Shown piece by piece: positions 1,625-29,235 of a stretch of DNA of 29,235 nucleotides (position 1 is its first letter; the number at the start of each line of letters is the position of its first letter). The notes under the pieces are model-generated. The model worked only from the letters and a program-made list of their open reading frames with translations. It ran no database searches and had not been told where the DNA came from. The stretch covers positions 1 to 29,235 of the forward strand of contig CAYLSY010000001.1 in the NCBI GenBank assembly GCA_964386275.1. Reading direction: 5' to 3'. This DNA comes from an uncultured Hyphomicrobiales bacterium. GTDB lineage: Bacteria; Bacteroidota; Ignavibacteria; Kapaibacteriales; UBA2268. Both the position numbers and the translations under genes were made by a program.

Positions 1625-1670
1625 AATCAGCAATAATCGCAAATTTCATCGTCTATATTAATTTTTGGCA

Positions 1671-2744: not shown

Positions 2745-2745
2745 G

Positions 2746-8448: not shown

Positions 8449-10602
8449 TTATTTCTTTTTGGGAACATTAGTTGAGCGACCACGGTTATTCCAAGTATAA
8501 TTCCAATCGCGAGTATTAATATTTCCGGATAAAGTCAAATCGGCATTTAAATAGTCAAAATTATCTGCTGCAGTGTTGTTTGGGTCGCTAATCACATCCC
8601 AGACGCCGATATAATCATCATTGTTAATGATTCCGTCGCCGTTTATATCTCCGGCAATCATTCCGTAAAGAAGGCTGTTGTCTTGGAATTTATGTAATGG
8701 CTTTACTGCTGTCGCTTGTCCGAACAGTATTGCCGGATTGGTAAAATCGACTGAAGTCGGATAGGCGCTTGGATACATATGAATCGGGTCGCCAGTGATA
8801 ACAGCCAAATGGGAACGGTGATGGACAGCTATATAATAATCACCTGAATCAATATTGCCCAATGTCGAGTTTTTCAACCTCAAAGGAGAAACGCCGTCCA
8901 AATCAACGATAGCGCCGTTTTTGCTGAGAAAGCCAATGCGATAGCGGGATTCGCCGCCAAGCATTTGCGTGCGGAACTCAACCAGAATCCAATCTACAAC
9001 GGAATCTGGTATCGAAAGCACTGTATAGCTTGTTCGCTGTGGGTCCATGTTATAAGGATATATATCAGGTGGGGTTAACGGAATCAGGTTCTTTTCCTTT
9101 AAATCGGCTGCCATTGAGCCGTTGCGGTACGGACCTTCCAAATAAGCTCGAGCAGACAACAAAAGCAATCCAGCAGAAGGGAATCCAATTGCAAAATCGC
9201 CATATGGAGTAATTCCCTCGACGTTAGCAAACGCCCAGTCAGTCGAAACATCGAACTGCGGAACGCTTGAATTTGTAAACTCGTTCCATTTATTGTCAAG
9301 GTAGCGCATTAGTTTTAAACTCGATAAATCCAGCCCTTTAACTTCATCCGTCGTCGGTGTGGAAGGAGTATACCGCCAGCCATAACCGAATGTAATTGTA
9401 ACGCCGCTTTGAATCAAACGGTCGTCAGCGTCGCGGGCTTCGAGCGCAAAGTGGCGCATCACTTTGTTTATGCTGCCATCGGGTAACGGCGAGTATTTAT
9501 ATGGTTTTGTTCGGAAAATTAGCGAGCGGGTGCCGTTTTTCGCTGTTTCATCAGGGAAATAGGCATATGTATAAATGTTATTAAATAGCATTTTTTCGCC
9601 GACTTTTAATACATTTCGACGGACAGAACCGTCGATTTCGGCATTGCTTGTTGCAAAAACCGGCTCTTTTTCGCTGTTCAGCGTCAAAATATAGCGCCTT
9701 TCATCAGTAGGTTCAGTCTTGATATAAGAAGACAGGAACAATTCGTTATTGACGAACACATTCGTATCGAGAACCAAGCCGCCGACATTTTCTACCCTTA
9801 AATCGTGTAGCACACTCGTATCGAGCGGTATTTCGGGACCCTGTATCATCTCGCCGTTGCCGGCATAATGCACCGAAACATTCGCCCCGAACTGCGGCGC
9901 CACCTGAATCGAAGCGCCCGAATGTCGCTCAATCAAAACAGAATCCTCCAAAACGATTTTTTCCGGCGCTGCGGCATTGCGAAGCTGCCCACGCGAAAGC
10001 GTCAGCTTCTCTTCGATGGCAAAGCCGCCGCCATGGACATTGACACCGAAAGGATTATCAATGTTCAAACGAGAAAATCGCCCATTGCCGTGCAGGTCTT
10101 GAGCAGCAGTATCATTGTTCATGCGGACATCTTTCGGTCCCTTGTATTTGGCAGTGTTGACTACTGCGCCCTTGGCATGGACATCAGGGGAGTTTATTCC
10201 TATCCAGCCGGTAGTTAATACCGTCGAATCTTCGATTATCAACGAATCGAGAACAACCAAATTTCGAACTTTGTTATTGATATCCTTTTCGTCCCGGATG
10301 ATTTTTGTGGCTTTATTACCAATTACAAGTTGATTATAAATAATGTTCGGAACGGATTGTTGACCGGACAAAGTCGGAGCAAGGAATTCAACCCTGCCGC
10401 CGATTGAATCTGGCATTCCCTTTACTTCACCACGCTTGACTCTAATTACTCCGGTCTTTCCATTAAAAATTTGACCGCTATTATCAAGCACATTTTGAGC
10501 CGCTAAGGTTCCATAAGCAATTGTGAAAGAAAGGAAATAAAGTAATATCCGAAAAATGGGTGAATTTAAAGAAAAATCTATATGTAGGGTTGTAATCTTC
10601 AT
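8449..10602 (-). CDS. Secreted 717-aa protein: beta-solenoid plus connector domain plus C-terminal LEGPY/dockerin-like Ca-binding module
   Basis: Signal peptide ends TLAA-Q. N-terminal part aligns by eye with the 736-aa neighbour. C-terminal ~235 aa has YLEGPY, VVDWILVEFR, GDYYIAVHHRSHL, GDINGDGIINNDD and degenerate ADLTLSGNINTRD. Confidence 0.8.
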   Translation of the reverse strand: MKITTLHIDFSLNSPIFRILLYFLSFTIAYGTLAAQNVLDNSGQIFNGKTGVIRVKRGEVKGMPDSIGGRVEFLAPTLSGQQSVPNIIYNQLVIGNKATKIIRDEKDINNKVRNLVVLDSLIIEDSTVLTTGWIGINSPDVHAKGAVVNTAKYKGPKDVRMNNDTAAQDLHGNGRFSRLNIDNPFGVNVHGGGFAIEEKLTLSRGQLRNAAAPEKIVLEDSVLIERHSGASIQVAPQFGANVSVHYAGNGEMIQGPEIPLDTSVLHDLRVENVGGLVLDTNVFVNNELFLSSYIKTEPTDERRYILTLNSEKEPVFATSNAEIDGSVRRNVLKVGEKMLFNNIYTYAYFPDETAKNGTRSLIFRTKPYKYSPLPDGSINKVMRHFALEARDADDRLIQSGVTITFGYGWRYTPSTPTTDEVKGLDLSSLKLMRYLDNKWNEFTNSSVPQFDVSTDWAFANVEGITPYGDFAIGFPSAGLLLLSARAYLEGPYRNGSMAADLKEKNLIPLTPPDIYPYNMDPQRTSYTVLSIPDSVVDWILVEFRTQMLGGESRYRIGFLSKNGAIVDLDGVSPLRLKNSTLGNIDSGDYYIAVHHRSHLAVITGDPIHMYPSAYPTSVDFTNPAILFGQATAVKPLHKFQDNSLLYGMIAGDINGDGIINNDDYIGVWDVISDPNNTAADNFDYLNADLTLSGNINTRDWNYTWNNRGRSTNVPKKK

Positions 10603-10721
10603 TATATCTGAATGACTAACTTAATGGGATATTGTCAAGTTGATATTAAACTCAAGTTTCAAAATATTTACTTTTAAAAAGATTGAATCAAAACACTACT
10701 CATTTCAGGCTGTCAAACCTT

Positions 10722-10780
10722 TTAAAATTAAATAAATTAACTCGAATCCGGCGGAGCTGTTTTGCAACCGCCGGACGAGT
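10722..10780 (-). terminator. Intrinsic terminator after the 736-aa gene
   Basis: Stem TCCGGCGG (10747-10754) / CCGCCGGA (10768-10775), extended by ACTCG/CGAGT across a 2-nt bulge, followed on the minus strand by TAATTTATTTAATTTT; ~32 nt after the stop. Confidence 0.75.
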
Positions 10781-10812
10781 AATAAATATCATTTAACAAA
10801 GAGCTTCAGCTA

Positions 10813-13023
10813 TTATTGTCCAAGTATCAAGATACCTTCGTTGTTGAATGTACCTGCGTTTTGATAGTTTTGTGTGCCAAACTGAACAAGGTTTGAACCG
10901 GTTATGATGCTTGTAATCCACAAACCGTTCAAATCAGCTTGAGCTGTTGATTTGGGTAATGGAGTTGCGCCAATTGCAGCAACAGAAGCAGCATGGTTAT
11001 CGTTAATCAAAGTAAAGCCTGTTTCTTGCTTTGTCATAAGCACATTGTTACCGTTGTCTTCGTTGCCGATGATAAGAGCAGGATGATGATATCCATCGGT
11101 TTGGTCTGCAGGATTCGGGTCGTTCTGAATGGTAATCATATTAGCAATATAAATTTCTCCGCTTACAGGTGTATAGTGTGTTGCTTCAGGAGTAGTATTG
11201 CCTGATACTGGTGTTTCAAATGCGCCAGACGGAGCTGCAGTGATACCGGCATAAACAACGTGGCGAACGAATGCATTATCGTCTTCGGTCGGAACGGAGC
11301 CTTCATCCCAAGTATTCGGGTTTGTCCAACGACCGGCGGTCTTTGATATAAATTCGATGGGACCGGTGCGGAGCAAAATCTCGTGGCCGCTGGCAAAATT
11401 ACCATTTCCATTAGGAACATTCCCCGTAATTTCGCTTATACCTGACAATTCTGCATAAGCTAAAGTGTCGGCGGCAGCAGGCCCGCCATTAGTATAAGGA
11501 TTACCTGTACCCATTTTCTCAAGAGTACCTGCTTGGTCTTCATACATACGAACTCTTTGCCAAGTATGTAGAGCATCAGCAGGCCACCCATTATCTTCAT
11601 CATCGCGATAACCAACCGTTAAAGTAAGATTATCCGAAAAATCGCCGCCTGCGTTGCTAACATAAGAAAGGACAACTTTTCTTTTGACGTCGGTTGTCGA
11701 ATCAAAGCCAGTAGGAGGAAGGCCCGGTTGAACATTGAATGTCATTGAAGTAGGAACGTTAACGCCATCAGTAAAAGTCGCTTTTGTGTGCATGTTGTTA
11801 AACCGATAGCCCTCGGCGGGTTGACTTGCATATAAAATGTTGCGCTCGAAAGCGCCGACAACTTCTTCGACGTCGCCATAAGTAACAGCGCCGGCTGCGT
11901 TCAACATGTGCAGTGTATTTGTGCCCATCGCCAATGTATTAGCTACAGCTCCTGAGGTAGCAAAATTAAAGTCTTGGCAAATCCAAATATCACCCAATGC
12001 GACAGCGTCGCTGCCAATAAGATTCAAGCTACCGAATGGATTTGTAGTAACGGTAGCAACGATGTTTTGAGAAGCAGTGCCGTTATAAGTTAAAATTGAA
12101 GTACAATCAAAAGTCATGTTGGTAGCGGCGGCAAAAGCATTTGTAAATGCGCCGGTGATGATTAATTCAGCGGGAGTTCCTGTTCCATCACCCAAATGCA
12201 ATGTAGAACCGCCGGCTGCATCAGCTAAAGCAAGAGTGGCTCCGGCGCCGACCGTAACATCGCCCGAACCGTCGGGAATGTCTATATCACCAAGTGTTAC
12301 AGTAACATCGCCATTAAAGTCCGTTGTGCCAGCTCCGGCATGGATACCGGCATTTGCATTATCCAATGTTACAGTCCCGGTAAATGTAGAAGTTGCTGCG
12401 CCGAGTTGCAAATCACCAGTAACAGTAACATTTGCACTTGCTGTAACATTACTGACAACGGTAACTGTTTCTGCGTCGCGGATGGTTTTGACGCCACCGG
12501 AGAGGTCTAAGATGTTGTAATGTGTTCCACCGGTTGCTGTGCTTGTCGGGAAGATGTTTTGCGGATCGGTACCATCATAATAAATTGTTCCTGCATAAGT
12601 AACGTCTCCACCGGAAGTATAAAACGGCCAATTGTTCAAGTTATCATATCCTGTCAAGAAGGTTGCGCACTGAGTCCCAGTTATATGTACTCCGTCGGGA
12701 ACTGCTTTTGCAACTGTGCCAGTAAGTACAAGGTGTTCATAATAAGCGGCTTGAACCGGCTGCGAAGTGCCGCTTGTAGCTGCATATTCAACAGTGCCTT
12801 TAATAGAGTTACCGGCTGTACCCAATGGGGCAGAACCAGTAAATTTGTCGCTGGCGGCAGTGCTGCGGATGCGAATCACAGCGCCGCAAGATGCGTTATA
12901 AACGCCGAGCGAGTCAGTTCCATTGTTGTTGTTATGGAAGTTCTGCGCCAGCGCTTCGCCTGCGGTTAACCCTATAAACAAGAGCGCCACAAGGCATAAG
13001 TGAAGTAAATTGTTTCTTTTCAT
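10813..13023 (-). CDS. Secreted 736-aa beta-solenoid protein, single circularly permuted repeat unit; candidate major filament subunit
   Basis: Signal peptide ends EALA-Q. Contains solenoid rungs (GTIYYDGTDPQNI, ILTYNGTASQNI), a connector (EVVGAFERNI..FNN), a cap motif FISKTAGRWTNPNTW near aa 556, and ends FNNEGILILGQ. SD AAGGA 8 nt upstream; tandem stop TAA-TAG. Confidence 0.8.
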   Translation of the reverse strand: MKRNNLLHLCLVALLFIGLTAGEALAQNFHNNNNGTDSLGVYNASCGAVIRIRSTAASDKFTGSAPLGTAGNSIKGTVEYAATSGTSQPVQAAYYEHLVLTGTVAKAVPDGVHITGTQCATFLTGYDNLNNWPFYTSGGDVTYAGTIYYDGTDPQNIFPTSTATGGTHYNILDLSGGVKTIRDAETVTVVSNVTASANVTVTGDLQLGAATSTFTGTVTLDNANAGIHAGAGTTDFNGDVTVTLGDIDIPDGSGDVTVGAGATLALADAAGGSTLHLGDGTGTPAELIITGAFTNAFAAATNMTFDCTSILTYNGTASQNIVATVTTNPFGSLNLIGSDAVALGDIWICQDFNFATSGAVANTLAMGTNTLHMLNAAGAVTYGDVEEVVGAFERNILYASQPAEGYRFNNMHTKATFTDGVNVPTSMTFNVQPGLPPTGFDSTTDVKRKVVLSYVSNAGGDFSDNLTLTVGYRDDEDNGWPADALHTWQRVRMYEDQAGTLEKMGTGNPYTNGGPAAADTLAYAELSGISEITGNVPNGNGNFASGHEILLRTGPIEFISKTAGRWTNPNTWDEGSVPTEDDNAFVRHVVYAGITAAPSGAFETPVSGNTTPEATHYTPVSGEIYIANMITIQNDPNPADQTDGYHHPALIIGNEDNGNNVLMTKQETGFTLINDNHAASVAAIGATPLPKSTAQADLNGLWITSIITGSNLVQFGTQNYQNAGTFNNEGILILGQ

Positions 13024-13083
13024 TTAATTAATCCTTGAAATAATAAAACATATAATATGATTTTTTGACTTTATTTTACATTT

Positions 13084-13335
13084 TTATTTATTTTCAATAG
13101 TAACTCCATTGAACCAAATTTCGCTTTCGCTCAGGTCTAAATCCTCATTCCAAACAACACTGTGCTTATTAGGATGCGCCATATTGAACTGAGCTGGGTC
13201 TTTCAGCTGCGAAAACAATTCGCTTTCTATTAAATGTCCACAATTGTATGCCTTGCGCTCGCCGTTATCGAATTCGACATGCAAAGTGTAGTCAGGCAGA
13301 GCTTCTACGGATTTTATTGTCGGAATTTGCTTCAT
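13084..13335 (-). CDS. DUF2442-family protein (NE0471 N-terminal-like), orphan
   Basis: IKSVEALPDYTLHVEFDNGERKAYN...LFSQLKDP..F......VVWNEDLDL matches the DUF2442 pattern. ATG at 13335 (alternative GTG at 13338). Confidence 0.85.
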   Translation of the reverse strand: MKQIPTIKSVEALPDYTLHVEFDNGERKAYNCGHLIESELFSQLKDPAQFNMAHPNKHSVVWNEDLDLSESEIWFNGVTIENK

Positions 13336-13379
13336 CACTTATTTTAAAACCTTCATTTAAAGACCTACTATCTTAAAAG

Positions 13380-13410
13380 CAAAACTATTCAAAATATTAC
13401 TACTCAGCAA
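13380..13410 (-). promoter_or_regulatory. Possible internal Bacteroidota-type promoter for DUF2442 and the 736-aa gene
   Basis: Minus strand TTG (13410-13408), 20-nt spacer, then TAGTTTTG (13387-13380), matching TTG-N19-21-TAnnTTTG. AT-rich context. Confidence 0.35.
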
Positions 13411-13497
13411 TACGTATAATTACTGAATGAATTTATTTTAATTTTAGCGCTTGATTTATTTTTGATGAAATACAATAAAACTTAAATTCTATTTTAA

Positions 13498-16400
13498 TTA
13501 TTCACCCAGTTCAATAACTCCGTTATTATTTATTAATGCTGAATTTATGACATTTCCCCGAACCATAAGGGCATCTATTCCGTCAATAAAAACTGTTGCG
13601 CCGAGCGAATTTACAAAATTGCTTCTGACAAGCACTTTGCGTGTAACATTTTTTGTGCCAAAATTTGTTGTATATAATAAACCGTAGCCGTTTCCGGTAT
13701 CGGTTAAGTAGTTATAAAACAAATCAGGTACGATAGAAACATCCTGATTGTCGCCATAGAACTCGAAAATACTGGAAATCCCTATGTCATATACGCTATA
13801 ATTAGTAATGACATCAAACAAAGAGTTATTTGTCCCGCCTATCCTCATGGTTGCCCCATTAGCATTTGTCATGGTCCCGGCGCCGGTAATATTTTTTAAA
13901 GTGTATGACACAGCGTCCAACGTTCCGCTTAGGATACTTAAATTCGAGCTGATGTTAATATTTTTATCAATAATAACGGTATTATTTCCCGGCGCGCCGG
14001 AATTATTGATAATCAAAGAGTTTACTGTAGACGGCAAGCCGTTTCCAATGACTTGGTTAGCTGTTCCATTGTATTCGTAAATACCGTTTGTATTAAATTC
14101 TCTTGAAACGCTTGTTAAAATGTTGCCCGTTGTGCCTCCGAGCGCTGAAATGCCTTGCGTAGAGCCGATTCTGAGTGTCGATAGTTCACCAAAAGAGAAA
14201 TAGAGTCCGTTCAATGTGTTAGCGCCGCAATCAAGAGTGCCGGTATTAGCCGCTTCTGTGCCGAGAGCGACTCCGGCGCCGTCGCCAGCCCCGAACGGCG
14301 CATCGACATTAAGTGTAATAATATGGTTACCAACGCCATTAGCGCCGCCGCCGATAACGACGGAATCTTCCGGTTCGTTGGGCCACAATCCCGAACCGAA
14401 AATTTGGGGTCCAAGGTGGTCTTTTTTGTAAGTCCATGAATTCGGGTCATTCCATAACCCATCGCGCAAGCTGTAGAATATTCGCCTGAAAGCCTGTTCG
14501 CTGCCGGCAGTCCAATCTCCGTGCAGGTCTGAATATAGCGCATCGTCATAAGTTTGAAAATTCGGGCTGCCACCAAAATTGAACGAAAAACCATCTGCTA
14601 CGGTAAAAGTTTTCCATCTGCCGCCGTTAGTTTCTTTGATTGGACGCCAGCGGCCGGCTTTAACGAACTCCGTTCCAATAGTGTCTGTTAAATTGAAATT
14701 AAATGTAAGTTTTCCGTTTAATTTTGACGTCATTGTATCGACAACCCAATAACGTTGCAAATAGGATATTTCCGGTGTGGATGAAATCTTGAAATGCGCT
14801 CCCAAATTAGTCGGATGCGAACCCGGCGAAGTCCTGACTCCCATATACCCGCCGACAGCGCCGCTTTGAGCCAAGAAATCGGCTGGAGCATAGCTTTCGG
14901 TCGCTTCATAGAATGAGCCAACCGGGAAAGTATATGTCTTGGGTAATCCGGTTGCATTCATATTCCTTACCAAATATCCGCTTGTCTGGCTTGTCTTGAT
15001 ATATTTACCAGCGCCATAACCAACTATGCCATTTATATTGTCTGCATTTAGAATATAAATACTTGCGCTATCACCTAAGGTGATAAGGTTGTCGTTTGCA
15101 GTAAAATTCAATTGATTATTAACATAAAGATTAGCGTTGGCAGACGCATTTAAGCGATTAACCATCACATTACCACCGCTGTTCATATTCAGAATCAGAT
15201 TATGGAATGGAATCCCCGAGCTGTTGCCGATATTCACATTTTTCGTTCCGCTGCCGGCAAAGGTGATGTTGCTGGCATTGCCGGGATTAAACGTCGCGGC
15301 TCCCCAAGCAGAAATATTTCTATATAAGTTAATATTTCGATTACCGACACTTAAAACTCCGGAATTGCTTACCAAAGAATCACGTATTTTAAGTGTTTGT
15401 GCGCCGGGAAAATTTGAAATTGCTACAATTTGTATCGGATTATCGGCAATTAATGCCGAGATGCTGTCAGGCAAAGCCCTGCCAGTCGTTTGACCATAAT
15501 TAGGGTTGTTAGCATTAAAGATATATCGGCTGACACCGAACGAACGTATTTCCGTTTGAATACCACCGCCGGGCATTCCAACAGGCACAAGACCGTCGGC
15601 TCGCTGCATACCGAGCGTGCAGCTATCTTGCAGCTCGAATGTATTGCCGTAAATCACGTTCGAAACGCCGGTATTTGTCGTATCGAGAATATATAATTCA
15701 CCCGGCGGCAAATTTGCTGGATTTTCAACAATTACCGCCCTTACTTCAATTTGAGGATTCAAACCCGATGGGATATACACTTTTTTTCCATTGCCGATAT
15801 AGACTTTATCTGTCGTTACGAGCAATCCATTGTTAAAACCCGGATAACGGTTTGCCGGAGGAGTATTTTCAATTAAATAATCTGTTAAAGACCATGTATT
15901 AACGTCGTTCCAATATCCGTCGCGATAACTATAAAAACTTTGTCCTTCGGGTTCGGCAAGCAGAAAATCGCCGAAATGTTTGTTTCCAACTGATTTTACC
16001 GTAGAATCAGTTCTTGTTGTTGTATTGGTTATATACCATGCGGCTGGTATGGTATCCCAACCCGGCGTTCGGCGGAATTGCTCTAAGAATGGTAGCGTTA
16101 TATTTAATCCGATTGTGTCTCTCGGCAAAGTGTACTCTAAGGTTAAAGCAAACGAACGTGTCAAGGAATCCAAGACGAATCCGCCTTTATGGTTGATATT
16201 CCAATATCTTTGAATATTATTGTCGATTCTGCCCAAAGGATACAAATTGGTTATATCAGGATGCTGAACGTTATACGAGATTGCCCCGACAAGTCCGGCG
16301 GTGCCGCCGGTACCAGTAGTTTGGAAAATTACTGGACGGTAGCCGTATTCCAAAGTATCGTTACCAATCGGAAATAGCTTTGTAACCTGCCCTGTTTCTA

Positions 16401-22400: not shown

Positions 22401-25400
22401 CTTCGAGGTTAAAACCATTTGATTCGAACGAAGCGTTATTGTTAATTGTCAAATCGTTCAAAATTATGACGGGAGTCGTTCCCGAACCAAGCAAACGCTT
22501 GGTTCCAGCGCTATCCAGCTTCAAATTAAAATATGACAGATTGAATACAGTATCAGCAGGAGCAAGCGGACGACAAGGAATGTCTTGGGTGGAACCGTTT
22601 TTATTGAAAACAACAGTCGAACCGTTTGTTTGGAAGCGCTGGCTGACGGGACCGGTAAATGTCAAATCTGATATATCCAAACTATTGCCGATACGTATTT
22701 CGCCTTGCGATTGAAGCGTTACAACACCAGAGACCGAACCGCTAATTTTCAAGTCGTAATAACGATTAACTGCAGGGGTAAGCGCAGAACTGGGTATAAG
22801 CGGATTGGCAATTCCGTGGAATGTTACCCTTCCGGCATTAAAAGTAGGTGCAGCATAATTCGCCGGAAAGCCGGTTCGCAGCAAAAGTTCACCGCCGGTC
22901 ATTTTAAGCGTTCGATTAGAGCTGCCGCCATCCATTGAGTAGCTGCCGACATCAAGGCAGCCTTGATTAATGACAATCGAATCATTGATTATGATAGCCT
23001 TGCTTAACTTTACGGTGTCAGTAAGCGCTCCGCCTTGAATTTTCACTACATTCACCGGCGATGGCAAGGCGTCTCCGGTTGTTTGAAGCGCCGCAGTCGA
23101 ATCGATAAACCGATAAGTCCCTCGTTGAGTAAAGCTACGCACAATCGTTTGAACAGCGCCGCTGTCCTGCTTTGTCGTTGCAAGCACGATTCCTTGCGGA
23201 TGGGCAATATCAAGTTCGCCGCCGTCATTGGCTAAAATAGTTGAACCTACTCTGAGAGTATCGCCGTGCATAAAGTTGCTGCCGAGGATACGAAGCCTGC
23301 CGGTTTTTGTAACGGTATTGACGACGCCTTTATCGACTATTACTGCATTGAAAGGCGCTGTGGCAGCCGAAACCGTAACGGTGTCACGAATGAAAACACG
23401 GTCGCTGCGTTTATTAGGCGCAGTGTTCGACGGATTGCCCGTGTATTCGAAACCGAGTTTAGACCACGTCGATGGATCGTTGTAGTCGCCGTTTTTTATG
23501 CTGTAATAATATGCTCTGCCTATGTTTTCTTCGCCAGCTACCCAATCACCGTTTAAAGAATCAGCCATTTGGGAATAAAAAAATCGAGCGCCCCAATTGA
23601 CTATATTGTTTGTCCTGCCGGGACCGACCTGCCAATATCCCAAAGGGTCGGGATATGATGGATGGAAATTCCAAACAAGATAATCAGCATCGGAGCCACG
23701 CACTTCTGTTTCGTGATAATAAAAAAACGCATCTAAAGAACGTATGGGTTTGAAAGTTAAATTCTCAGTCTTCATAACCCAATATTTTGTCAAAGAAGTA
23801 TTATTGGTTTCAACTGCAGGATGCTCCATAGGAATAGCCTTACATGAAACTGAAGCGTTCGGATAATACATAACGCTGTCCGGATGAAAATATACTGTTG
23901 ATGGCGTAAATACTTTGATAATGGCGGTATCTGAACCGGTTATTTGTCTTCCATAAGTTCCTATAGGGAAAAACAGATTTATAGGCGGTATCGGAGGAGT
24001 TATGTCTGGAGTAATCAATTTTTTAATTCTGCCGCAATCGGCAGTCCAACTCGGATTGAAAATCATCTTTTTGTTGTTAAAAGAAGTATCTGTTGTGGCA
24101 GCAGTAGAATAAATATCTCCGTTTGTGCCTATTGTCAAAGAATCAAGGTTAATATTAAATAATGTATTTGATACAAGACGCAAATTGCCGTTTACCGTAA
24201 CCGATGTGTCGAGAACGACTTGGTTTGTTGTATCGGAGCCGGCAATTTGTTTATTAATAGTCAAATTATTAAATGCGGTAGTAACAGCGCCTTGAATTCG
24301 TTGCTCAGGCAGTCCATTCATTGTAACGGTAGCAGCTCCGGCAGTGAAAGCCAACAAATCCGTTGTTGAGTTATTTATCCAATTGCCTCCGAGCGTAATA
24401 TTTCTATTGTTAGCGTCAAATCTGCCAGCGCCTGTTCCAGCTATTGTAATATTGCTTACAACGCTTAAATCATTGTTTATAATCCGAGCGATAGGGCTGT
24501 TCGTGCCAGTCATCAGCAAATTTCCGATTGCATGAGTTGTATTCAATCGATAAGTTTCAGCGTTATTACGGGCGTCGATTTTTACCGTACCGCCGGTTAC
24601 GTTCGAAGCTCCTGCAACTGAGTAGAACTCACCGTTTGCAAATGCGGAGGCTTGGCTCTTCAATACAATTTCGCCTGCTGAAGTATAAAAGGATGAGCCA
24701 GCCGAACCTAAATCGAACAAAGCGCGAGTTGCGCTTGTGTTTTGCGAGCCGTAACCAAGATTGATTGTTCCGCCGCTTTGAGTAAAACGCAGCGAATCGC
24801 TGTCGCTAGCATTACGCGAAAGGCGCGCATTAACGTTTAGCGTACCGCCTTCGACGGTTAATTGCGCCGCCGAAGAACCCGATTCATATAGTAAATTATT
24901 TTCGTTTGCGCCTGCACCAATGTTGATTGTTCCGTTCGTTAATCGAAGCAAGCCCTGAAGAAGCAAACTGGCATTTTGACCGGTGAAAATCACGTTTTCG
25001 TTATCGAGCCACAGCCCGGAATTGCTGTTTATTGTGTAATTTAATATCGAAAAGAAATTGTTTGTGAATGAAAATGTGCCGCCGATATGAAAAATACCCC
25101 TCTCAAGCGATAAAAACGGATTATTTGCCGAAAAAGCCGTCGAAAGCACATCCAATCTGTCATTTGCTGATGTTTTATTTAAAATAATATCGTAAAATTC
25201 GGTTGTCGTTCCAGTTCCGGAAATTTGTGCATTGCCGCTACCAATAAAAGAAACAGTCCCTTGAAGCGAAAATTGGTCACCATTATTAGTCCAGTTGCCG
25301 ATTATCGTAACATCGCCGTTTATATGGAAAATGCCGTTGTTCGTTAGCGAGCCGTTAATTTTAACTATTGCATCAGGACGTATTGAAACAACCGCATTAG

Positions 25401-25491
25401 GGCGGATATTGACTAAGCTCTGCCCAAATACTGCATTGAGTGCCAAGAATAGTAAAAATAGGATATATATATGTAATCTATTGAATGTCAT
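13498..25491 (-). CDS. Giant 3997-aa secreted repetitive beta-solenoid protein with six cap/solenoid/connector units and a GEVED domain
   Basis: Signal peptide ends AVFG-Q. Six cap motifs of type FYS...G.W....TW (codons near 23514, 21321, 19902, 18033, 15942, 14484), recurrent W.N.G.F...TV.F.G...Q rungs, and six connectors with F.VG/Y.P/HP/R.W motifs. Ends INNNGVIELGE with no recognisable CTD or beta-barrel. Confidence 0.9.
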   Translation of the reverse strand: MTFNRLHIYILFLLFLALNAVFGQSLVNIRPNAVVSIRPDAIVKINGSLTNNGIFHINGDVTIIGNWTNNGDQFSLQGTVSFIGSGNAQISGTGTTTEFYDIILNKTSANDRLDVLSTAFSANNPFLSLERGIFHIGGTFSFTNNFFSILNYTINSNSGLWLDNENVIFTGQNASLLLQGLLRLTNGTINIGAGANENNLLYESGSSAAQLTVEGGTLNVNARLSRNASDSDSLRFTQSGGTINLGYGSQNTSATRALFDLGSAGSSFYTSAGEIVLKSQASAFANGEFYSVAGASNVTGGTVKIDARNNAETYRLNTTHAIGNLLMTGTNSPIARIINNDLSVVSNITIAGTGAGRFDANNRNITLGGNWINNSTTDLLAFTAGAATVTMNGLPEQRIQGAVTTAFNNLTINKQIAGSDTTNQVVLDTSVTVNGNLRLVSNTLFNINLDSLTIGTNGDIYSTAATTDTSFNNKKMIFNPSWTADCGRIKKLITPDITPPIPPINLFFPIGTYGRQITGSDTAIIKVFTPSTVYFHPDSVMYYPNASVSCKAIPMEHPAVETNNTSLTKYWVMKTENLTFKPIRSLDAFFYYHETEVRGSDADYLVWNFHPSYPDPLGYWQVGPGRTNNIVNWGARFFYSQMADSLNGDWVAGEENIGRAYYYSIKNGDYNDPSTWSKLGFEYTGNPSNTAPNKRSDRVFIRDTVTVSAATAPFNAVIVDKGVVNTVTKTGRLRILGSNFMHGDTLRVGSTILANDGGELDIAHPQGIVLATTKQDSGAVQTIVRSFTQRGTYRFIDSTAALQTTGDALPSPVNVVKIQGGALTDTVKLSKAIIINDSIVINQGCLDVGSYSMDGGSSNRTLKMTGGELLLRTGFPANYAAPTFNAGRVTFHGIANPLIPSSALTPAVNRYYDLKISGSVSGVVTLQSQGEIRIGNSLDISDLTFTGPVSQRFQTNGSTVVFNKNGSTQDIPCRPLAPADTVFNLSYFNLKLDSAGTKRLLGSGTTPVIILNDLTINNNASFESNGFNLEVQRHWVNISGSFNPGTNTVRFRTSSNDPLIPNLITSRDTSANPFYHVEVVGEGYIRPNDMMRIRGNFVIDTLTKFSMRTAPNATLLALKGNWLNQGGTFLPGNSTVSFEGTGKQTMTRTSGNEYFYNMIINGPDSVCASYVGYSSADNGIFINANGNISLLKGNLRTRGRYLQLDSTATITRPGANPGHIDGSLRKIFKTGVQTVVFEVGHNHNYTPLTMTTTGTGGTTGYLNVLSDTIQVGSTPLSWDNTTNTVIQPIGSALSSSKHVARQWSITKPAGSSFNLAFSRTYDATIQYVPTSDLRGGANWTLFEPRLLDLNGNWILPQYLSKPLIGTLTDSTVQYRRLDSLGTIAVGEPGQYSFYSINSGNLSTAANWSTQGYDGPPAAFAPSDPLAQGNPLIFIGNNKSITLDVNLSETYPGIVTIDSTGALYCGSNVISGTGEFRLKRNGALGIGHASGITNAGSGNIQLSTRNYNYGSHFRGHFIYTGTNAQTQANEAVPDSVATLQVNKASNTVTFNKANLVVVDSLYIQSGTLSAGSNLTVNGNWINYGAFTPNNYIVDFNGATADTIKSSAAQTFYQLRLQKTAGNLVIRDNPVTITNLLQFRSGNKGVLVSPTFANYIQINNGATLTRSDSGHVYGQLRRWVGTANPTNVTWHVGTDSLIGYRPITITFNGTGGSPAAGYLAVTMVDGEHPNFGSMPAGGIDAAWLVQRFWRTTKPQGSTFRLGTRTTDINLTFLNPQDLRFGAVPGCFDIDSWANNDWNIFNKTTTQSNFGTNICADRPTGTYTYTGSDVNVKLYAAPASSYGSTLIDTDTLWADFITGRALETGTTTFWSRQDGDWFDVNTWSEVDYDGPPASRVPTQFFDIAYIGNGRRVVLDKSIGSGNRTNGSDRRDYSALRTLNIENNGTLATGTNFIYCFGVNIENNGALEVGSLDGLRGIGTFRGNLWPITYTYYDQTLDNRFIYTAEGYTAPFTPYTEGGSGICTPSGANNSSEWISRIQLPGIDANHSIDNTSGASVSPQAYEYYVSQQANLNAGSSYTLTMTPGFGTTRNQRWIAWIDYNMNGDFTDAGEQLFSATTASSSAVSRSFTVPSGNMPGTTRMRVKMYRSTSSAGSDVCDNPAYGEVEDYSIRIFNPNYTLPAQTTGDGLPANVGAFIVQSPRSGAVNPQVTLSKNVTCADSLKIISGILNAGAYTIGIKGDFINDTIGGFNAQTSEVLFKGDSRDTIRGSQPITFNKITINKPTTTEKVYLENNITVGNVFKFSTDNNLYLNPNNTLTFNATGSVSPDAGSFSSKRMFQVDGISLNDTITKQFSGTTFNFTFPVGVDSIYNPASFNFRGTNSGNAAIKLLLKAEKHPARLTENILSKYWRVSSTGITVDTTLPATYTFGYSVYDINGDVNWYIPGRHKTPGGWEINLGTNPVALPSPITVVQEPGLDGDWTAGHPLVYFNGRVFYSIKSGVWNNRYNWSNDAVLKHSGTAASYYPGMLFNNDTVNIDGHIIVFKDSAHVSIDSLRIGGTNPAAGAGRLLFGDTPSIKTLEMRTLFLDADNGYIGDTSSIANRYDTLKISQDLINLSTGHGINLYKSATNFTALKFGGDSVSTISGNGKWGRLPKVFLTKTGLTDTLINASSTFSLATDTVSNFMFYPNGGVFRHTVADTMCIAKGNTNLTIISGSGFDIRSGALRSDTNIVASYNTTTYLNGGSLIVGNNADECLFYSDGSKFDILSGSIDIAGCFTRLTDGALVNITIDTFGIARVMRIGNTRADRIGFDIRNAGSTFNMDGGRIIVAKGSAEASLDYYVDAAAGVKMRGGIIQSGDSSIAAGAVPIKLKGTMPIFGFHASNAPGNAAQTHFISLDTILNDAYIDVNHTMQIQGNLALGGDLINYGTLSASSAGTLELFGSGNTQTLFNSTGAALEFYNLKIAKPDSGLVQLGLDASDNSNIVVRNNLEFALGNKSLIDSRTFNKYVEVSPSGGSAAEIVINGPGHINGRLYRWIETGQVTKLFPIGNDTLEYGYRPVIFQTTGTGGTAGLVGAISYNVQHPDITNLYPLGRIDNNIQRYWNINHKGGFVLDSLTRSFALTLEYTLPRDTIGLNITLPFLEQFRRTPGWDTIPAAWYITNTTTRTDSTVKSVGNKHFGDFLLAEPEGQSFYSYRDGYWNDVNTWSLTDYLIENTPPANRYPGFNNGLLVTTDKVYIGNGKKVYIPSGLNPQIEVRAVIVENPANLPPGELYILDTTNTGVSNVIYGNTFELQDSCTLGMQRADGLVPVGMPGGGIQTEIRSFGVSRYIFNANNPNYGQTTGRALPDSISALIADNPIQIVAISNFPGAQTLKIRDSLVSNSGVLSVGNRNINLYRNISAWGAATFNPGNASNITFAGSGTKNVNIGNSSGIPFHNLILNMNSGGNVMVNRLNASANANLYVNNQLNFTANDNLITLGDSASIYILNADNINGIVGYGAGKYIKTSQTSGYLVRNMNATGLPKTYTFPVGSFYEATESYAPADFLAQSGAVGGYMGVRTSPGSHPTNLGAHFKISSTPEISYLQRYWVVDTMTSKLNGKLTFNFNLTDTIGTEFVKAGRWRPIKETNGGRWKTFTVADGFSFNFGGSPNFQTYDDALYSDLHGDWTAGSEQAFRRIFYSLRDGLWNDPNSWTYKKDHLGPQIFGSGLWPNEPEDSVVIGGGANGVGNHIITLNVDAPFGAGDGAGVALGTEAANTGTLDCGANTLNGLYFSFGELSTLRIGSTQGISALGGTTGNILTSVSREFNTNGIYEYNGTANQVIGNGLPSTVNSLIINNSGAPGNNTVIIDKNINISSNLSILSGTLDAVSYTLKNITGAGTMTNANGATMRIGGTNNSLFDVITNYSVYDIGISSIFEFYGDNQDVSIVPDLFYNYLTDTGNGYGLLYTTNFGTKNVTRKVLVRSNFVNSLGATVFIDGIDALMVRGNVINSALINNNGVIELGE
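18985..19440 (-). other. GEVED domain inside the 3997-aa protein
   Basis: CTPSGANNSSEWISRI...AWIDYNMNGDFTDAGE...FTVP...TTRMRV...YGEVEDY; the namesake motif is encoded at 19000-19017. Confidence 0.92.
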
Positions 25492-25506
25492 TAAATTATA
25501 TCGTCA

Positions 25507-28500
25507 TTAACTTAGTTTGTGTATTGAGACGTATGTTTTAGCTTTACCTGTAACAAGACTCTGAACAGAAGTCCATAAATGAAATACTCTTACTTCCAAC
25601 CATTCACCTGCATTTAAATAAATAATATCTGAAATAACCGGAGCATTATTTGTAGGAATCAATGGGGTTTGTGAAGAACCTGATTCATTTAAAGCAAGGT
25701 TATTTCCATATGAGTAATAAGTTTCTGTATTATCAGAATTAGAATATATTGCTATAGAACAAAACCTATTCGCTGATGCAGTACCTGAGCCACTTAAATT
25801 AAATTCAACTCTTGAATTAACTTGGTAATATCCCGCTTGCTTTGCAGTAAACCTACTAGTAGTAATATCGAACTCTTCCTGTTCATCGAAATTCTCAACA
25901 TTAAAATTCACTTTAGTCCATGTATTTATAGGTATTGATTGTTCTGTATTTAAATACGCCCTTACTCTGCTTTGATGTTTCAAATCCACAATACCTTCAC
26001 TGCCTTCTTCGGCATGAATAATAACTTGCTCTTCGCCTTTTATTTTGAATACAAGCGGATTTGTGTTAGTCGGCTCCGATGAACCCAAAAAGTCGCTTTC
26101 AGTGATTTCATTCCCTCCGAGCAACCACGCTGAACCGCCGCCGCCGCTGTTCGCTTCTGTAGTGATTGTTTCCCAGTCGTCGTTTCCACGTATTTTCATT
26201 CTTCTTTCAGTCGAGCTGTAGTAAATCATACCGGGAACCGGGTCGGCAGGTTCATTCTCCAAGGGTACCATAAAGATAGCAATTGGGTCTATTGTTCCGG
26301 TAACAATCAAATCGCCGTTGATGCGTACATCACCGAGCATTTCTACGTTAATAGAATCGTCATCAAAAGTTGTAACTCCAAGTCCAACCCTGCCCTCGAC
26401 AAATAAGCCGTCATCAGGCGCGGTTACAGAGCCTGCATAACCCGAACCAATAACAACCCCGCCGGCAACATCAAGCAAGTTCACAGGAGATGTTTCTCCG
26501 ATTCCTATATTAGTTCCATCATTTATCAATAAATCTGACGCCACCCAGCCTGTGCCGTCATGTCTTAAAGTTTGCTCTTCTGCGCCGCTCGGTAAAGCAA
26601 CGTCAACCCAGCTTAGAAAGCCGGACAAGCCAGATGTGGAAAGCACTTGGCCGGAATCGCCTTGAGTAATTGGCAATGTATATGTATATGTATCAGCCAT
26701 GCTTGGGTCTGATAAAAACGATACACCACCAGTTGCATTTTCATTATATACCGATAGATTACCTAATACCATAAAGGAATTTGAAGCATTCTCCCAAATC
26801 AGATTCGGACTGCCAGTAATTTGGTGGTTCGAAGACCAAAATGTAACTTGATTCATTACCGGTGCGCCGCTTGTGTCCGCTTTTTCATTAAATAAATTCC
26901 AGTCATCGCTCGAAAGATAACCTGCGCTTGCGTTTCCAGCTTGCGCCACTTCTATAGTAACGCCTGTTCCGATTACTGAACCTTCGCCGCCGGTTATTGT
27001 AAGAACACTCGAATTGGTTTCTTCCAAATTGCCAGTAGTTAATGCATCAAGTTTATTATTAAAAGTGTTCCAGTCATCGCTCGAAAGCGCTCCCGTTGTG
27101 GTTGCAGAAGCCAAACCAAGTGATAATTCCTGAACATCAAGGCTCAATCCGTTAGCTGTTCCAAGTGTAACGGCAGGATGAGATTCCAATTCCAGAGCAT
27201 CTACTGAGCCTTGCAATTTTCCAAAGGCATCTAAAATATTATCAGTAGCCGTAATATCGCCAGTTGATGTAATAAAACCGGTTAAAATTTTGCCTATTAC
27301 TGCGCTATTGCTCAAAGTAACAACTCCTGCATTCGAAATTGTCGCTTCGCCGCTCATCGAAACCGAAGCGGCTAAATTAGATGCGTCGCCAACCAAAATA
27401 TTTCCGCTGTTCAACGCAGAACCAACAGGCGACACTCCAGTAATAGTCGTATTTCCAGCCGCTGTCAAGCGTCCCTGCTCATCGACGGTAAAAGTCGCCA
27501 CTTCCGTTGCGCTGCCATAGCTGCCGGCAGAAACAGCGGTATTGGCAAGATTCAATGTAGCCGAAAAACCGTCGCCTAAGGCATCTGCGGCTATGCCGCC
27601 GCTTAAACCTGTCCCGGCAGTTATTGTCGCTGTCTGATTGCCTTCAACAGCAGAGCCTGAGGATGTTCCGTAAGCCACATCCCAAGTCGTTGCTGCAGAA
27701 CCGTCATAGTTTGAGCCGGTTAGCCCTGTGCCTCGAGTTAAAAGCGCATGTGTATGGTCGCTACGTGAGGCTGTATTTGCCGCGCCGCTCCCGGCGAAAT
27801 CGACATCAATAGTCAAATTGCCGTCGTCGGACCCTGCATCAGTAAAACTAATGCCGTTTCCTTCGACTAAAACTCGATTGTTTGATAGATTAGCAGCAGT
27901 TGAAAAAGTAATGAGCGGCGATGAAGATATATTCGAAGCGTTTTGGTCAACATAATCTTTCGTTGTCAAAGTAGTCGGTCCGTCGCCTACGCCTGTCGAA
28001 GCGCTTGTAGCCTTGTTTATTATATTTAGCGAGGAAAAAGTCGGCGAAGAAGTTGCGGCAATATCTTGCGGAGTTGATAGCGTGATTGAACCTGCGGCGT
28101 TAGCCACATTAACCTGATTTGCAGTACCAGTCAGTGTCGCTAATGTATAATTAGTACCATTGCCAATTAATAATTGACCATTCGTGGGAGTAGTCGATAA
28201 ATTTGTGCCGCCGTTAGCAACAGGCAGAACTCCGCTGACTTCCGCCGTAGCCAAATCAACTGCATCGCTAGCGCTGCCGGAACCGACAAAGCGATTAGCT
28301 TGGATGTAGCCAGCACCGGTCGGTGCTAATGAACCTTGAACCAATAAGTTTGCAGTATTTGTGCCATCAGTAATTTGGCTAAATGGCACAGTAACATTCG
28401 TTAGTGAATTTGTCCATGATAATACACCGGAGCCATTGTTCATCAAAAGCGAGTTTGCGGCTCCTTGAGCGATTGGCAGCGTCCAGTCGATGTATGCTGA

Positions 28501-29172
28501 TTGAGCGCCGGCAGAAATATTGGTAGTAAATGTTCCTGCCGGGTTTTGAAATTGCAGTTGCCGAGCAATTCCGGCATTGCTTAATATAGATAAATTACCG
28601 CTAATTGAAGAATTACCCGTAACCGATGCACCTCCGGCGATAACGTTCAATCCACCTGCTGTTACGCTGACACCGCCGGAAGTTACGCTGACACCGCCAG
28701 CCGCTACTGTAAGCTTATTTGCAAGGTTGAGTCCGCCGTTAGGAAGAAAGTCAGTCCCAGCATCGCCAATATTAAAAACAAGGTGATTAGCCATATCAAT
28801 ATTACCGGTCATTGTTCCGCCAGATAAAGGCAGGAACAAACCATCGTCGCTTGCCGCAATTTTAAACCACGAGCCACCGATTCGAAAGTAGAAACCGGCT
28901 GTGTAGCTGCCTGATGCATCTGTTTGATACACGAGCAGCCCTTCAGCAGGCGAAACGATTGCAATGCGTTGGGCATAGGTCATTCTTGGGGCAAGAAATC
29001 CCATTGTTGTCGACTCAAGATGTAAAATTGCTGATTGGTCAGGGGTTAATGTGCCTATTCCAACATTGTCGGTCTGGGAAATCATAGGCAGAGCCGATAG
29101 AATGAATAACAGGCTAACCCATATTTCTAAATTAAATTTTTTTCTATTTATTATTGAGTTGGCTACTGTCAT
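25507..29172 (-). CDS. Secreted ~1220-aa trimeric tail-fibre-like adhesin with C-terminal C1q-like head
   Basis: ATG at 29172 with GGAG 6 nt upstream is preferred over TTG 29184. Signal peptide ends PMIS-Q. N-terminus NVGIGT..P..SAILHLEST..GFLAPRMT..QR.AI.SPAEGLLVYQTD is followed by many fibre-type motifs and a C-terminal jelly-roll motif set. Confidence 0.85.
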   Translation of the reverse strand: MTVANSIINRKKFNLEIWVSLLFILSALPMISQTDNVGIGTLTPDQSAILHLESTTMGFLAPRMTYAQRIAIVSPAEGLLVYQTDASGSYTAGFYFRIGGSWFKIAASDDGLFLPLSGGTMTGNIDMANHLVFNIGDAGTDFLPNGGLNLANKLTVAAGGVSVTSGGVSVTAGGLNVIAGGASVTGNSSISGNLSILSNAGIARQLQFQNPAGTFTTNISAGAQSAYIDWTLPIAQGAANSLLMNNGSGVLSWTNSLTNVTVPFSQITDGTNTANLLVQGSLAPTGAGYIQANRFVGSGSASDAVDLATAEVSGVLPVANGGTNLSTTPTNGQLLIGNGTNYTLATLTGTANQVNVANAAGSITLSTPQDIAATSSPTFSSLNIINKATSASTGVGDGPTTLTTKDYVDQNASNISSSPLITFSTAANLSNNRVLVEGNGISFTDAGSDDGNLTIDVDFAGSGAANTASRSDHTHALLTRGTGLTGSNYDGSAATTWDVAYGTSSGSAVEGNQTATITAGTGLSGGIAADALGDGFSATLNLANTAVSAGSYGSATEVATFTVDEQGRLTAAGNTTITGVSPVGSALNSGNILVGDASNLAASVSMSGEATISNAGVVTLSNSAVIGKILTGFITSTGDITATDNILDAFGKLQGSVDALELESHPAVTLGTANGLSLDVQELSLGLASATTTGALSSDDWNTFNNKLDALTTGNLEETNSSVLTITGGEGSVIGTGVTIEVAQAGNASAGYLSSDDWNLFNEKADTSGAPVMNQVTFWSSNHQITGSPNLIWENASNSFMVLGNLSVYNENATGGVSFLSDPSMADTYTYTLPITQGDSGQVLSTSGLSGFLSWVDVALPSGAEEQTLRHDGTGWVASDLLINDGTNIGIGETSPVNLLDVAGGVVIGSGYAGSVTAPDDGLFVEGRVGLGVTTFDDDSINVEMLGDVRINGDLIVTGTIDPIAIFMVPLENEPADPVPGMIYYSSTERRMKIRGNDDWETITTEANSGGGGSAWLLGGNEITESDFLGSSEPTNTNPLVFKIKGEEQVIIHAEEGSEGIVDLKHQSRVRAYLNTEQSIPINTWTKVNFNVENFDEQEEFDITTSRFTAKQAGYYQVNSRVEFNLSGSGTASANRFCSIAIYSNSDNTETYYSYGNNLALNESGSSQTPLIPTNNAPVISDIIYLNAGEWLEVRVFHLWTSVQSLVTGKAKTYVSIHKLS
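25510..25980 (-). other. C1q/TNF-like globular head domain of the fibre protein
   Basis: SRVRAY...SIP.NTWTKVNF.VENFD.Q.EFD.TTSRFTAKQAGYYQV...V is typical of gC1q/BclA-like domains. Confidence 0.8.
26897..27087. repeat. Exact 20-bp direct repeat TTCCAGTCATCGCTCGAAAG (26897-26916, 27068-27087) encoding LSSDDWN twice
   Basis: Read directly; copies are 171 bp (57 codons) apart, in frame. Confidence 0.9.
28661..28698. repeat. 21-bp-period tandem repeat (GTTACGCTGACACCGCC x2) encoding GGVSVT heptads
   Basis: Exact 17-mers at 28661-28677 and 28682-28698. The protein reads AAGGVSVTSGGVSVTAGGLNVIAGGASVT. Confidence 0.9.
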
Positions 29173-29235
29173 TACAAGCTCCAATTTTTTTTATTATATT
29201 AATATTACCTTAAATATTATCTTAGCAAGATTGCA

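Follow-up and report, generated by a model that had tools for sequence, protein, structure and literature searches.

Two very large exported proteins encoded side by side in a 29,235-nt stretch of DNA from an uncultured bacterium of the Kapabacteria/Ignavibacteria type (contig CAYLSY010000001.1, positions 1 to 29,235, assembly GCA_964386275.1; hereafter the window) end in the same short motif, here called the tail. The minus strand of the window carries five closely spaced genes (P0001, P0002, P0003, P0004 and P0005; open reading frame (ORF) calls, 7141-29184), and the tail is found at the ends of the second and third, which code for a 'giant' of 3997 aa and a 'mid' protein of 736 aa. It is a C-terminal-only structural motif of two short strands with Asn-x-Gly turns that closes the last solenoid of both proteins. 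We propose that the tail is the donor half, at the C-terminus, of a joint that links subunits head to tail in a surface fibre, the other half being the conserved mature N-terminus (the 'head') of the next subunit; on this reading our confidence is evenly divided. Its main support is the coordinated gain of Cys residues in tails and heads in several lineages. The elements on which the argument turns are the following.

13498..25491, minus strand: giant (P0002), a 3997-aa beta-rich repeat protein with a signal peptide and no C-terminal domain (CTD) of the type IX secretion system (T9SS).
13501..13557, minus strand: giant tail, residues 3979-3997, GNVINSALINNNGVIELGE, the C-terminal-only motif.
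10813..13023, minus strand: mid (P0003), 736 aa, made up of signal peptide, head, solenoid, connector, cap, short stub and tail.
12868..12945, minus strand: mid head, the mature N-terminus, residues 27-52, QNFHNNNNGTDSLGVYNASCGAVIRI.
10816..10869, minus strand: mid tail, residues 719-736, NYQNAGTFNNEGILILGQ.
8449..10602, minus strand: d2 (P0004), 717 aa, with an N-terminal half paralogous to mid and without a tail.
10429..10497, minus strand: d2 head, the mature N-terminus, residues 36-58, QNVLDNSGQIFNGKTGVIRVKRG, family consensus Q..(S)LDNTGGKINNLGTIRV(K/R).
8452..8655, minus strand: dockerin-like Ca-loop region at the d2 C-terminus, ending ...NTRDWNYTWNNR...
7141..8436, minus strand: d3 (P0005), 431 aa, with a signal peptide.
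7144..7416, minus strand: probable diverged T9SS type A CTD of d3, residues 341-431, recognised from family-level hidden Markov model (HMM) matches.

The giant ends ...INNNGVIELGE and the mid ends ...FNNEGILILGQ, exactly as an earlier, sequence-only reading of this DNA had reported from the translations, and both fit the common ending h-x-N-x-[AG]-x-h-x-N-x-G-h-h-E-h-G plus 1-4 residues. The pattern proposed in that reading, NNxGx(I/L)xLG(E/Q), holds at both C-termini but is too narrow for the relatives, in which the last residue is N, Q, E, D or K, or is replaced by extensions such as NCP, TEP and ICQ, with at most 4 residues after the final tail G. In the host genome, a metagenome-assembled genome (MAG) that is 86% complete, a scan of 1.05 million residues (six-frame ORFs of at least 100 aa) for the strict pattern NNxGx[IL]xLG[EQ] gave two matches and no more, namely the giant and mid C-termini. 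The looser pattern N-x-G-h-x-h-G occurs 27 times, and only the occurrences in giant and mid stand at an ORF end; a tail HMM run over the same genome matches these two ORFs alone. The ending is present in 39/39 giants as ...N-x-G-h-h-E-h-G plus 1-4 residues. The 38 homologues of the window giant, which come from Kapabacteria, Ignavibacteria and Chloroherpeton-type MAGs, all of uncultured bacteria, and are 36-49% identical over the matched C-terminal region, read ...V-I-N-x-A-x-I-x-N-E-G-V-I-E-I-G plus 1-4 residues. Among the mids, 30/31 end h-x-N-x-G-x-h-x-N-x-[GS]-h-h-E-h-G plus 1-4 residues. The motif is absent from Pfam and NCBIfam.

That the two ends are alike by chance, or through a recent gene conversion between neighbouring repeat genes, is scarcely credible. 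Both genes are built of similar Asn/Gly-rich rungs, and the 27 looser patterns show that material of this kind is present elsewhere in the genome, but the strict pattern is found at the two ends alone, and both families keep the ending across ~30 genomes at 30-50% overall identity. Conversion is further opposed by a codon identity of ~40-50% at identical residues, and by a nucleotide identity between the two 3' ends that is 20.4 of 36 within a genome and 19.6 of 36 between genomes; this DNA-level comparison rules out a recent conversion.

Nor is the tail an ordinary internal solenoid rung, an outcome that the sequence-only reading had named as fatal to its own proposal. Real tails score a median of 24 bits with the tail HMMs, against less than 10 bits for internal segments throughout ~278,000 homologue residues, a scan that took in CTD-bearing homologues as well as the giant's own internal solenoid units; internal segments of the window giant score 9.4 bits or less. 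The low internal scores in the window giant and its homologues rule out the ordinary rung. The sequences that went into each family HMM are also those whose C-termini it scores; less circular measures are the cross-family searches and the internal superfamily scan. In the cross-family searches the mid-tail HMM matches 38/39 giant C-termini at the exact end, and the giant-tail HMM 22/31 mid C-termini. Weak internal relatives reach 8.6 bits in the distant subfamily P0096/P0101, and unit 1 of the giant gives an internal match of up to 15 bits with the short cross-family tail HMM. The internal N-x-G-h-x-h-G occurrences at giant residues 842, 1959, 2736 and 3376 belong to a different, early-solenoid motif (h-x-I-x-x-G-x-L-D-h-G-x-Y), and none of the giant's six internal solenoid units closes with the tail motif. 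The tail is rung-like in composition, but the complete motif is restricted to a free C-terminus. A search with a profile of the giant's last 520 aa against 1.84 billion representatives returned 2963 relatives. The tail ends 80 of the best 145 of these, including other architectures of 600-1700 aa; among the other 65 there are 20 type A CTDs and one type C CTD, and the rest are fragments or have different ends.

An AlphaFold2 (AF2) model built for the giant's last 520 aa from a 39-sequence alignment has a predicted local distance difference test (pLDDT) score of 93, with strands at 504-506 and 509-518 of 520; the tail forms the last strands, confidently packed on its own solenoid in the monomer. 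For the mid (31 sequences) the overall pLDDT is 86; its C-terminal end consists of short regular strands at 84-90, and its head is at about 58-60. A fold search with the giant C-terminal model gave no significant match in the PDB (best E 0.018, to a ZU5-like connector). The passengers of Hbp, EspP and EspC came up weakly in Foldseek (E>=0.25). In the AFDB clusters the giant model gave only partial matches, to other solenoid proteins known from prediction; one of these bears a T9SS CTD, and over all the fold searches some do.

The main rival explanation is that the tail is a plain C-terminal cap or folding nucleus of the terminal beta-solenoid and the heads are N-terminal caps, with no role in docking or secretion. 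Such a cap would be needed by superfamily proteins that end in a solenoid, but not where a CTD or another domain comes after the solenoid, and the tail is indeed mutually exclusive with further C-terminal domains. The confident packing in monomer models agrees with a cap, as do the Asn-Gly hairpin composition, which suits the visor type, and the occurrence of the tail in stand-alone proteins without a mid neighbour (e.g. P0088); the weak rungs inside P0096/P0101 suggest descent from an ordinary rung. We nevertheless consider the cap rather unlikely. The six internal units of the giant terminate without the motif, and solenoid termination therefore does not need the tail. Caps usually belong to the less conserved portions of a protein, whereas in this operon the most conserved windows include the termini of three different proteins. 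A cap also leaves unexplained the joint gains of Cys, a lone Cys42 in d2 and the rare substitutions common to both tails that are described below.

The conservation of the termini extends to the heads, which in both mid and d2 stand at a constant spacing from the signal-peptidase site. Their consensus is Q-[ND]-F-T-N-N-T-G-G-T-Y...G-x-I-R-M-[KR] in the mid and Q..L-D-N-T-G-G-K-I-N-N-L-G-T-I-R-V-[KR] in d2. Four termini are each among the five most conserved windows of their family, namely the tail of the giant, the head of the mid, and both the head (in fourth place) and the C-terminal end of d2; the mid tail is within the top 13%. First place in the d2 family goes to its extreme C-terminal ...T-R-D-[FW]-N-x-[ST]-W-N-N-R, a hot spot that may contact the next subunit. 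Heads and tails have an N-x-G-x-I-x-h frame in common, and the best matches of a d2-head HMM against the giants are the giant tails. The majority of tails carry E where the majority of heads carry R/K, a trend that is not universal.

Giant-mid pairs were drawn from 38 genome loci and six contig loci. Rare tail substitutions are common to the giant and the mid of one genome (Q/Q and C/C in L008, I/I in L034, N/N in L045, D/D in L044), and L045 has in addition N at the R position of both heads. The type of extension is likewise matched within a genome, giants in G-x-[EC]-P occurring with mids in G-I-C-[QP]. Giant and mid also covary in the length of their C-terminal extensions (11/11 against 2/19, with 5 changes on the tree), which is not significant because only 2 contrasts lie on well-supported branches. 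Covariation for a general salt bridge between tail E and head R is only suggestive; the four-way Asn of L045 fits it, but L033, L032, L038 and the window mid tail do not.

The Cys residues give the clearest pattern. A Cys in the mid tail is found in 12 genomes, with 6 changes on the tree, and in 12/12 of these mids the usual head disulfide pair (residues ~16-20 and ~86-93) is lost and one unpaired head Cys is gained. With a tail Cys at G+2 the head Cys lies near residue 50, whereas a tail Cys in place of G goes with a head Cys at residues 21-27; an unpaired mid head Cys without a tail Cys is seen in one genome only. In d2, a Cys at the equivalent head position (residue 42) is restricted to tail-Cys lineages (9 genomes) and is the sole d2 Cys in L016, L017 and L025. 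The giant tail has a Cys in five of the tail-Cys genomes, with no consistent partner within the giant. In L025 and L016 the four odd Cys residues pair as giant tail/mid head and mid tail/d2 head. Every phylogenetically independent Cys contrast points the same way; the best tree offers 6 of them and the well-supported branches 3. Such coupled changes argue for tails and heads being near each other in space.

In the head-to-tail joint that we propose, the tail would pack on the head (Q...N-x-G-x-I-[R/K]-h-[K/R]) and the first solenoid rung of the subunit that follows. The giant tail would pair with the mid head, and the mid tail with the head of another mid or of d2; in some lineages the joint would apparently be disulfide-locked. 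At the other end, d2 would bind d3 via its dockerin-like end, and of all subunits d3 alone would bear a known signal for outer-membrane export and anchoring, namely its probable diverged type A CTD. Gene order would then be fibre order from tip to base, i.e. fibre tip, giant, one or more mids, d2 and d3 as CTD anchor. A chain of this kind accounts for the gene order and for all of the odd Cys residues. About 30 genomes keep the sequence of genes giant, mid, d2, d3, and in two distant lineages the gene that follows a tail-bearing protein (P0101 and P0184) is again mid-like, with a head that reads QNFTN or N-x-G-x-I-K-I-K-G. The docking strand suggested in the sequence-only reading draws its support from this conserved giant-mid synteny, from the terminal hot spots, from the motif type common to heads and tails and from the joint Cys gain. 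The positional conservation of the tail, its restriction to C-termini, the rare substitutions common to the tails of giant and mid, and the low AF2 confidence of the mid head beside a well-modelled mid tail also speak for a joint. The physical docking, the order of subunits and their export are what we infer.

Several observations weigh against the joint. The contact between tail and head is read from sequence covariation, and with 3 Cys contrasts on well-supported branches the sign test gives p 0.25. If the mid folded back on itself, its head Cys and tail Cys could bond within one chain, and the AF2 packing of the giant tail on its own solenoid would also be expected of a simple cap. Complementarity of E and R is not general, as L033 combines a tail E with heads T/I, and R/K takes the E position in some of the distant tails. 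One tail-bearing protein family, P0088, stands alone with no mid-like neighbour, and a search for a natural tail-then-head fusion (Rosetta stone) found none. Separately, the idea that the mid stub and the next head together rebuild the exact unit length of the giant was rejected, as a stub of ~170 aa plus a head solenoid of ~360 aa do not fit the 330-400 aa of each internal unit.

The question of export is common to all of these proteins. By direct reading, each of the five operon proteins begins with a basic/hydrophobic signal-like segment followed by A/S/G-Q, and a lipobox is absent from all five because the +1 residue is never Cys. Gln is the first mature residue in every operon protein and in the homologues (L009-L046) of Kapabacteria/Ignavibacteria-type genomes. 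A Gln directly behind the predicted signal-peptidase site is the 'Bacteroidetes Q-rule', here in Kapabacteria/Ignavibacteria-type genomes; according to PMC5837995, the rule does not extend over the whole Fibrobacteres-Chlorobi-Bacteroidetes (FCB) group.

Neither a type A, B or C CTD of the T9SS nor an autotransporter barrel or two-partner secretion (TPS) domain was found in the 1225-, 3997-, 736- and 717-aa proteins (Pfam and NCBIfam, E<=1). Direct reading and these scans bear out the claim of the sequence-only reading that the four have Sec-type signals but neither CTD, lipobox nor autotransporter barrel. CTD models match 0/39 giant C-terminal regions and 0/31 mids at E<=0.1, and these whole-family scans rule out a canonical CTD obscured by divergence in giant or mid, the other outcome that would have refuted the proposal of the sequence-only reading. 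Type B (TIGR04131) and type C (NF033708) CTDs have no match in any of the five proteins at E<=1. In d3 the window copy is under the cut-off (TIGR04183 14.7 bits, cut-off 23, E 0.023; PF18962 E 0.043). Within its family 7/24 members match TIGR04183 (best 1.4e-5) and 11/24 match PF18962, and therefore d3 probably carries a diverged type A CTD; its C-terminal pattern, read directly as G-L-Y-x-h-h-F...K-h-Q-L-h-[RK], is typical of that type.

The host has a T9SS, as seen from the SprA translocon (771 bits), the PorU sortase (857 bits) and CTD cargo (88 TIGR04183 matches, 80 above cut-off). GldM was not found in the host genome and may be divergent or unassembled. The MAG shows no type B CTD above cut-off, no PorP/SprF match and no TpsB (ShlB), and a secretin (PF00263) gave no match, which at 86% completeness does not prove its absence. 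Of the features of type V secretion (autotransporter or two-partner), the barrel and the TPS domain gave no Pfam match in the operon proteins, and ShlB none in the genome. The window, too, has no TpsB or PorP/SprF, as had been noticed before, because its other genes are those of xseA and an RND efflux operon (HlyD, AcrB, TolC; plus strand, 425-7138), convergent with and unrelated to the minus-strand operon. The T9SS is the only recognised route in the genome, and the d3 CTD is the only recognised signal in the window operon.

Against this background the tail might be a new short C-terminal sorting or anchoring signal; an unrecognised sorting signal was among the options of the sequence-only reading. 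An outer-membrane or T9SS-associated receptor would read it, as an alternative to the T9SS CTD, on each protein separately. The endings of the superfamily lend this some weight, since the C-terminus is either the tail (80 of the best 145) or, in the other 65, a T9SS CTD in 20 type A cases and one type C case, and sorting signals typically show such a 'choice of anchor'. The need of the motif for a free C-terminus points the same way, as does a host inventory with SprA, PorU and at least 80 CTD cargo proteins in which no secretin or TpsB was found; a shared receptor would be in keeping with the rare substitutions that both tails of a genome have in common. The 1225-aa and 717-aa operon proteins, however, have no tail, so that the export puzzle stays for both. 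There is no candidate dedicated receptor, the sole co-distributed partner in the loci examined being the mid-like protein. Moreover, the tail is an integral folded strand pair and not a separable domain like known CTDs, and covariation with N-terminal heads is not expected of a signal. A sorting signal is supported by the alternation of tail and CTD as endings, but as the second rival we regard it as quite doubtful.

If tails instead join subunits, as we prefer, it is possible that the tail-bearing proteins piggy-back through the T9SS on their CTD-bearing partner d3, as the sequence-only reading had also suggested for a CTD-bearing partner, and the probable diverged type A CTD on d3 and the dockerin-like end on d2 are consistent with such hitch-hiking. 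In its fullest form the proposal would be a new surface appendage, in which Sec-exported beta-solenoids of up to 4000 aa would be joined in the periplasm via terminal Asn-Gly hairpins (disulfide-locked in some lineages) in the order tip fibre, giant, (mid)n, dockerin-like adaptor and CTD protein, the whole rod being pulled through the T9SS translocon by the single CTD base subunit. We think it unlikely that all parts of this scheme hold together. To our knowledge, T9SS export requires a CTD on every cargo, and the scheme, if true, would be the first piggy-back (hitch-hiker) export through this system. In any case a conserved operon of T9SS-bearing bacteria encodes very large, clearly extracytoplasmic proteins that lack a CTD. 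If the motif is a subunit joint, it would represent a new way of building long heteromeric beta-solenoid fibres and a testable candidate for T9SS piggy-backing; if it is a signal, it would be a new sorting signal. An HMM of the motif could flag such proteins in Bacteroidota-group genomes, and the tail-head pair could serve as a protein-joining module.

Among known systems, one close comparison is with curli CsgA/CsgB, bactofilins and engineered uncapped beta-solenoids, where, as would be the case here, beta-solenoid subunits join via their terminal rungs, and a specialised terminal element decides between capped and sticky ends. Polymers formed by end-to-end stacking of beta-solenoids are described in PMC10192328, PMC4372379 and PMC7034853. 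The subunits of the present operon differ in reaching 4000 aa, in being of at least three kinds ordered in one operon, and in having connector and cap domains; the joint would consist of two Asn-Gly hairpins at the outermost termini, with cysteines that are specific to certain lineages, and polymerisation is putative. In contrast to curli, there is no CsgG-type channel and there are no amyloid-type repeats. As for the marks of a head-to-tail polymer, the models are beta-rich with short regular strands and weak beta-helix matches, and the putative interface is drawn from covariation. With T9SS CTD cargo (TIGR04183, TIGR04131, NF033708) the operon has host phylum and machinery in common, and homologous solenoid proteins in relatives carry a type A CTD, whereas the four large proteins lack any described CTD and the tail has ~16-20 residues instead of a 70-100-aa Ig-like domain. 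Chaperone-usher and Bacteroidota type V (FimA/Mfa) pili are similar in that a terminal strand would complete or extend the fold of the next subunit, and in their order of tip, shaft and anchor with an operon that encodes the subunits in that order. Unlike these pili, the present system has no lipoprotein precursor, usher, chaperone or pilin fold, and its joint would link solenoid ends and not insert a strand into an Ig-like groove. The dockerin-like Ca-loop pair of the d2 family, beside the gene for a surface-anchored partner, resembles the dockerin-cohesin pairing of cellulosomes. Dockerin_1 (PF00404) matches 4/26 d2-family members (best E 2.2e-5), the window copy being without any Pfam match, and unlike in cellulosome anchoring no cohesin match was found in the 431-aa d3 family. 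Finally, long beta-helical passenger-like rods recall the autotransporter and TpsA beta-helix adhesins, but no beta-barrel, TPS domain or TpsB was found here, and the fold matches are not significant.

The remaining features of the operon are the following.

25507..29184, minus strand: fibre protein (P0001), 1225 aa from a TTG start, ~1221 aa from the ATG at 29172.
18994..19224, minus strand: GEVED domain within the giant, residues 2090-2166 (PF20009, E 2e-19).
10735..10775, minus strand: GC-rich hairpin TCCGGCGG, 12-nt loop, CCGCCGGA, read directly, beyond the mid stop codon.

The fibre protein has a signal peptide followed by a conserved mature N-terminal domain (Q-T-[DE]-N-V-G-I-G-T...), and its C-terminal end gives a weak C1q-like match; apart from the GEVED domain of the giant and the sub-threshold CTD of d3, this is the only Pfam/NCBIfam match of the five proteins at E<=1. 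Its homologues lie directly upstream of the giant in L004-L008, with a precomputed PF26696 PTL_trimer match. The shaft and C-terminal end differ among relatives. All that the fibre proteins of the window and L004-L008 have in common is the first ~95 aa of the mature protein (Q-T-E-N-V-G-I-G-T...G-L-L-I-Y-N-T-D), together with a few modules of the shaft; lengths range from 494 to 1279 aa and the C-terminal ends are unlike, resembling phage tail fibres with exchangeable tips.

The hairpin beyond the mid gene is followed by a T-rich stretch (read directly) and is a possible attenuating terminator; a consensus terminator scan missed it, as its loop exceeds the limit of the scan. Together with the strong ribosome site recorded earlier, a terminator-like hairpin would fit the mid as an abundant, possibly polymerising subunit.

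The fuller conserved order in relatives is LuxR-type response regulator, fibre, giant, mid, d2, d3, WD40 propeller, OmpA-type outer-membrane protein, response regulator and CHASE kinase. The WD40 proteins of relatives have T9SS CTD-like ends, with a recorded PF18962 match in L008 only. In the window genome the trio of OmpA-type protein, response regulator and CHASE kinase is on a separate 3-kb contig (G000:C103, L047:130-3092), and the OmpA-type protein consists of an OMP_b-brl_2 barrel and an OmpA domain. The window d3 adjoins the convergent TolC gene, unlike in relatives, which reflects either a rearrangement or an assembly break.

Other loci show local departures from the conserved order. 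At L040:14752-15900 a 383-aa gene, with an N-terminal sequence unrelated to the operon proteins, lies between mid and d2, and suggests that the operon tolerates interruption at this point. At L005:23082-26762 the giant is followed by a 782-aa protein with no tail and no evident signal peptide and by a 437-aa protein with an Alginate_exp (AlgE-like barrel) match; the operon is here either replaced downstream of the giant or at its boundary. The mid-like gene behind P0184 is split into three ORFs of 154, 531 and 130 aa (L056:13491-16146), through frameshifts or assembly errors, and the last piece is still tail-ended (...NAGTITVQ). Finally, the MAG records L010, L016, L020, L023, L026, L028, L032, L033, L039, L044 and L045 are titled 'uncultured Hyphomicrobiales bacterium', but their sequences group with the Kapabacteria/Ignavibacteria giants, and these titles are probably wrong.

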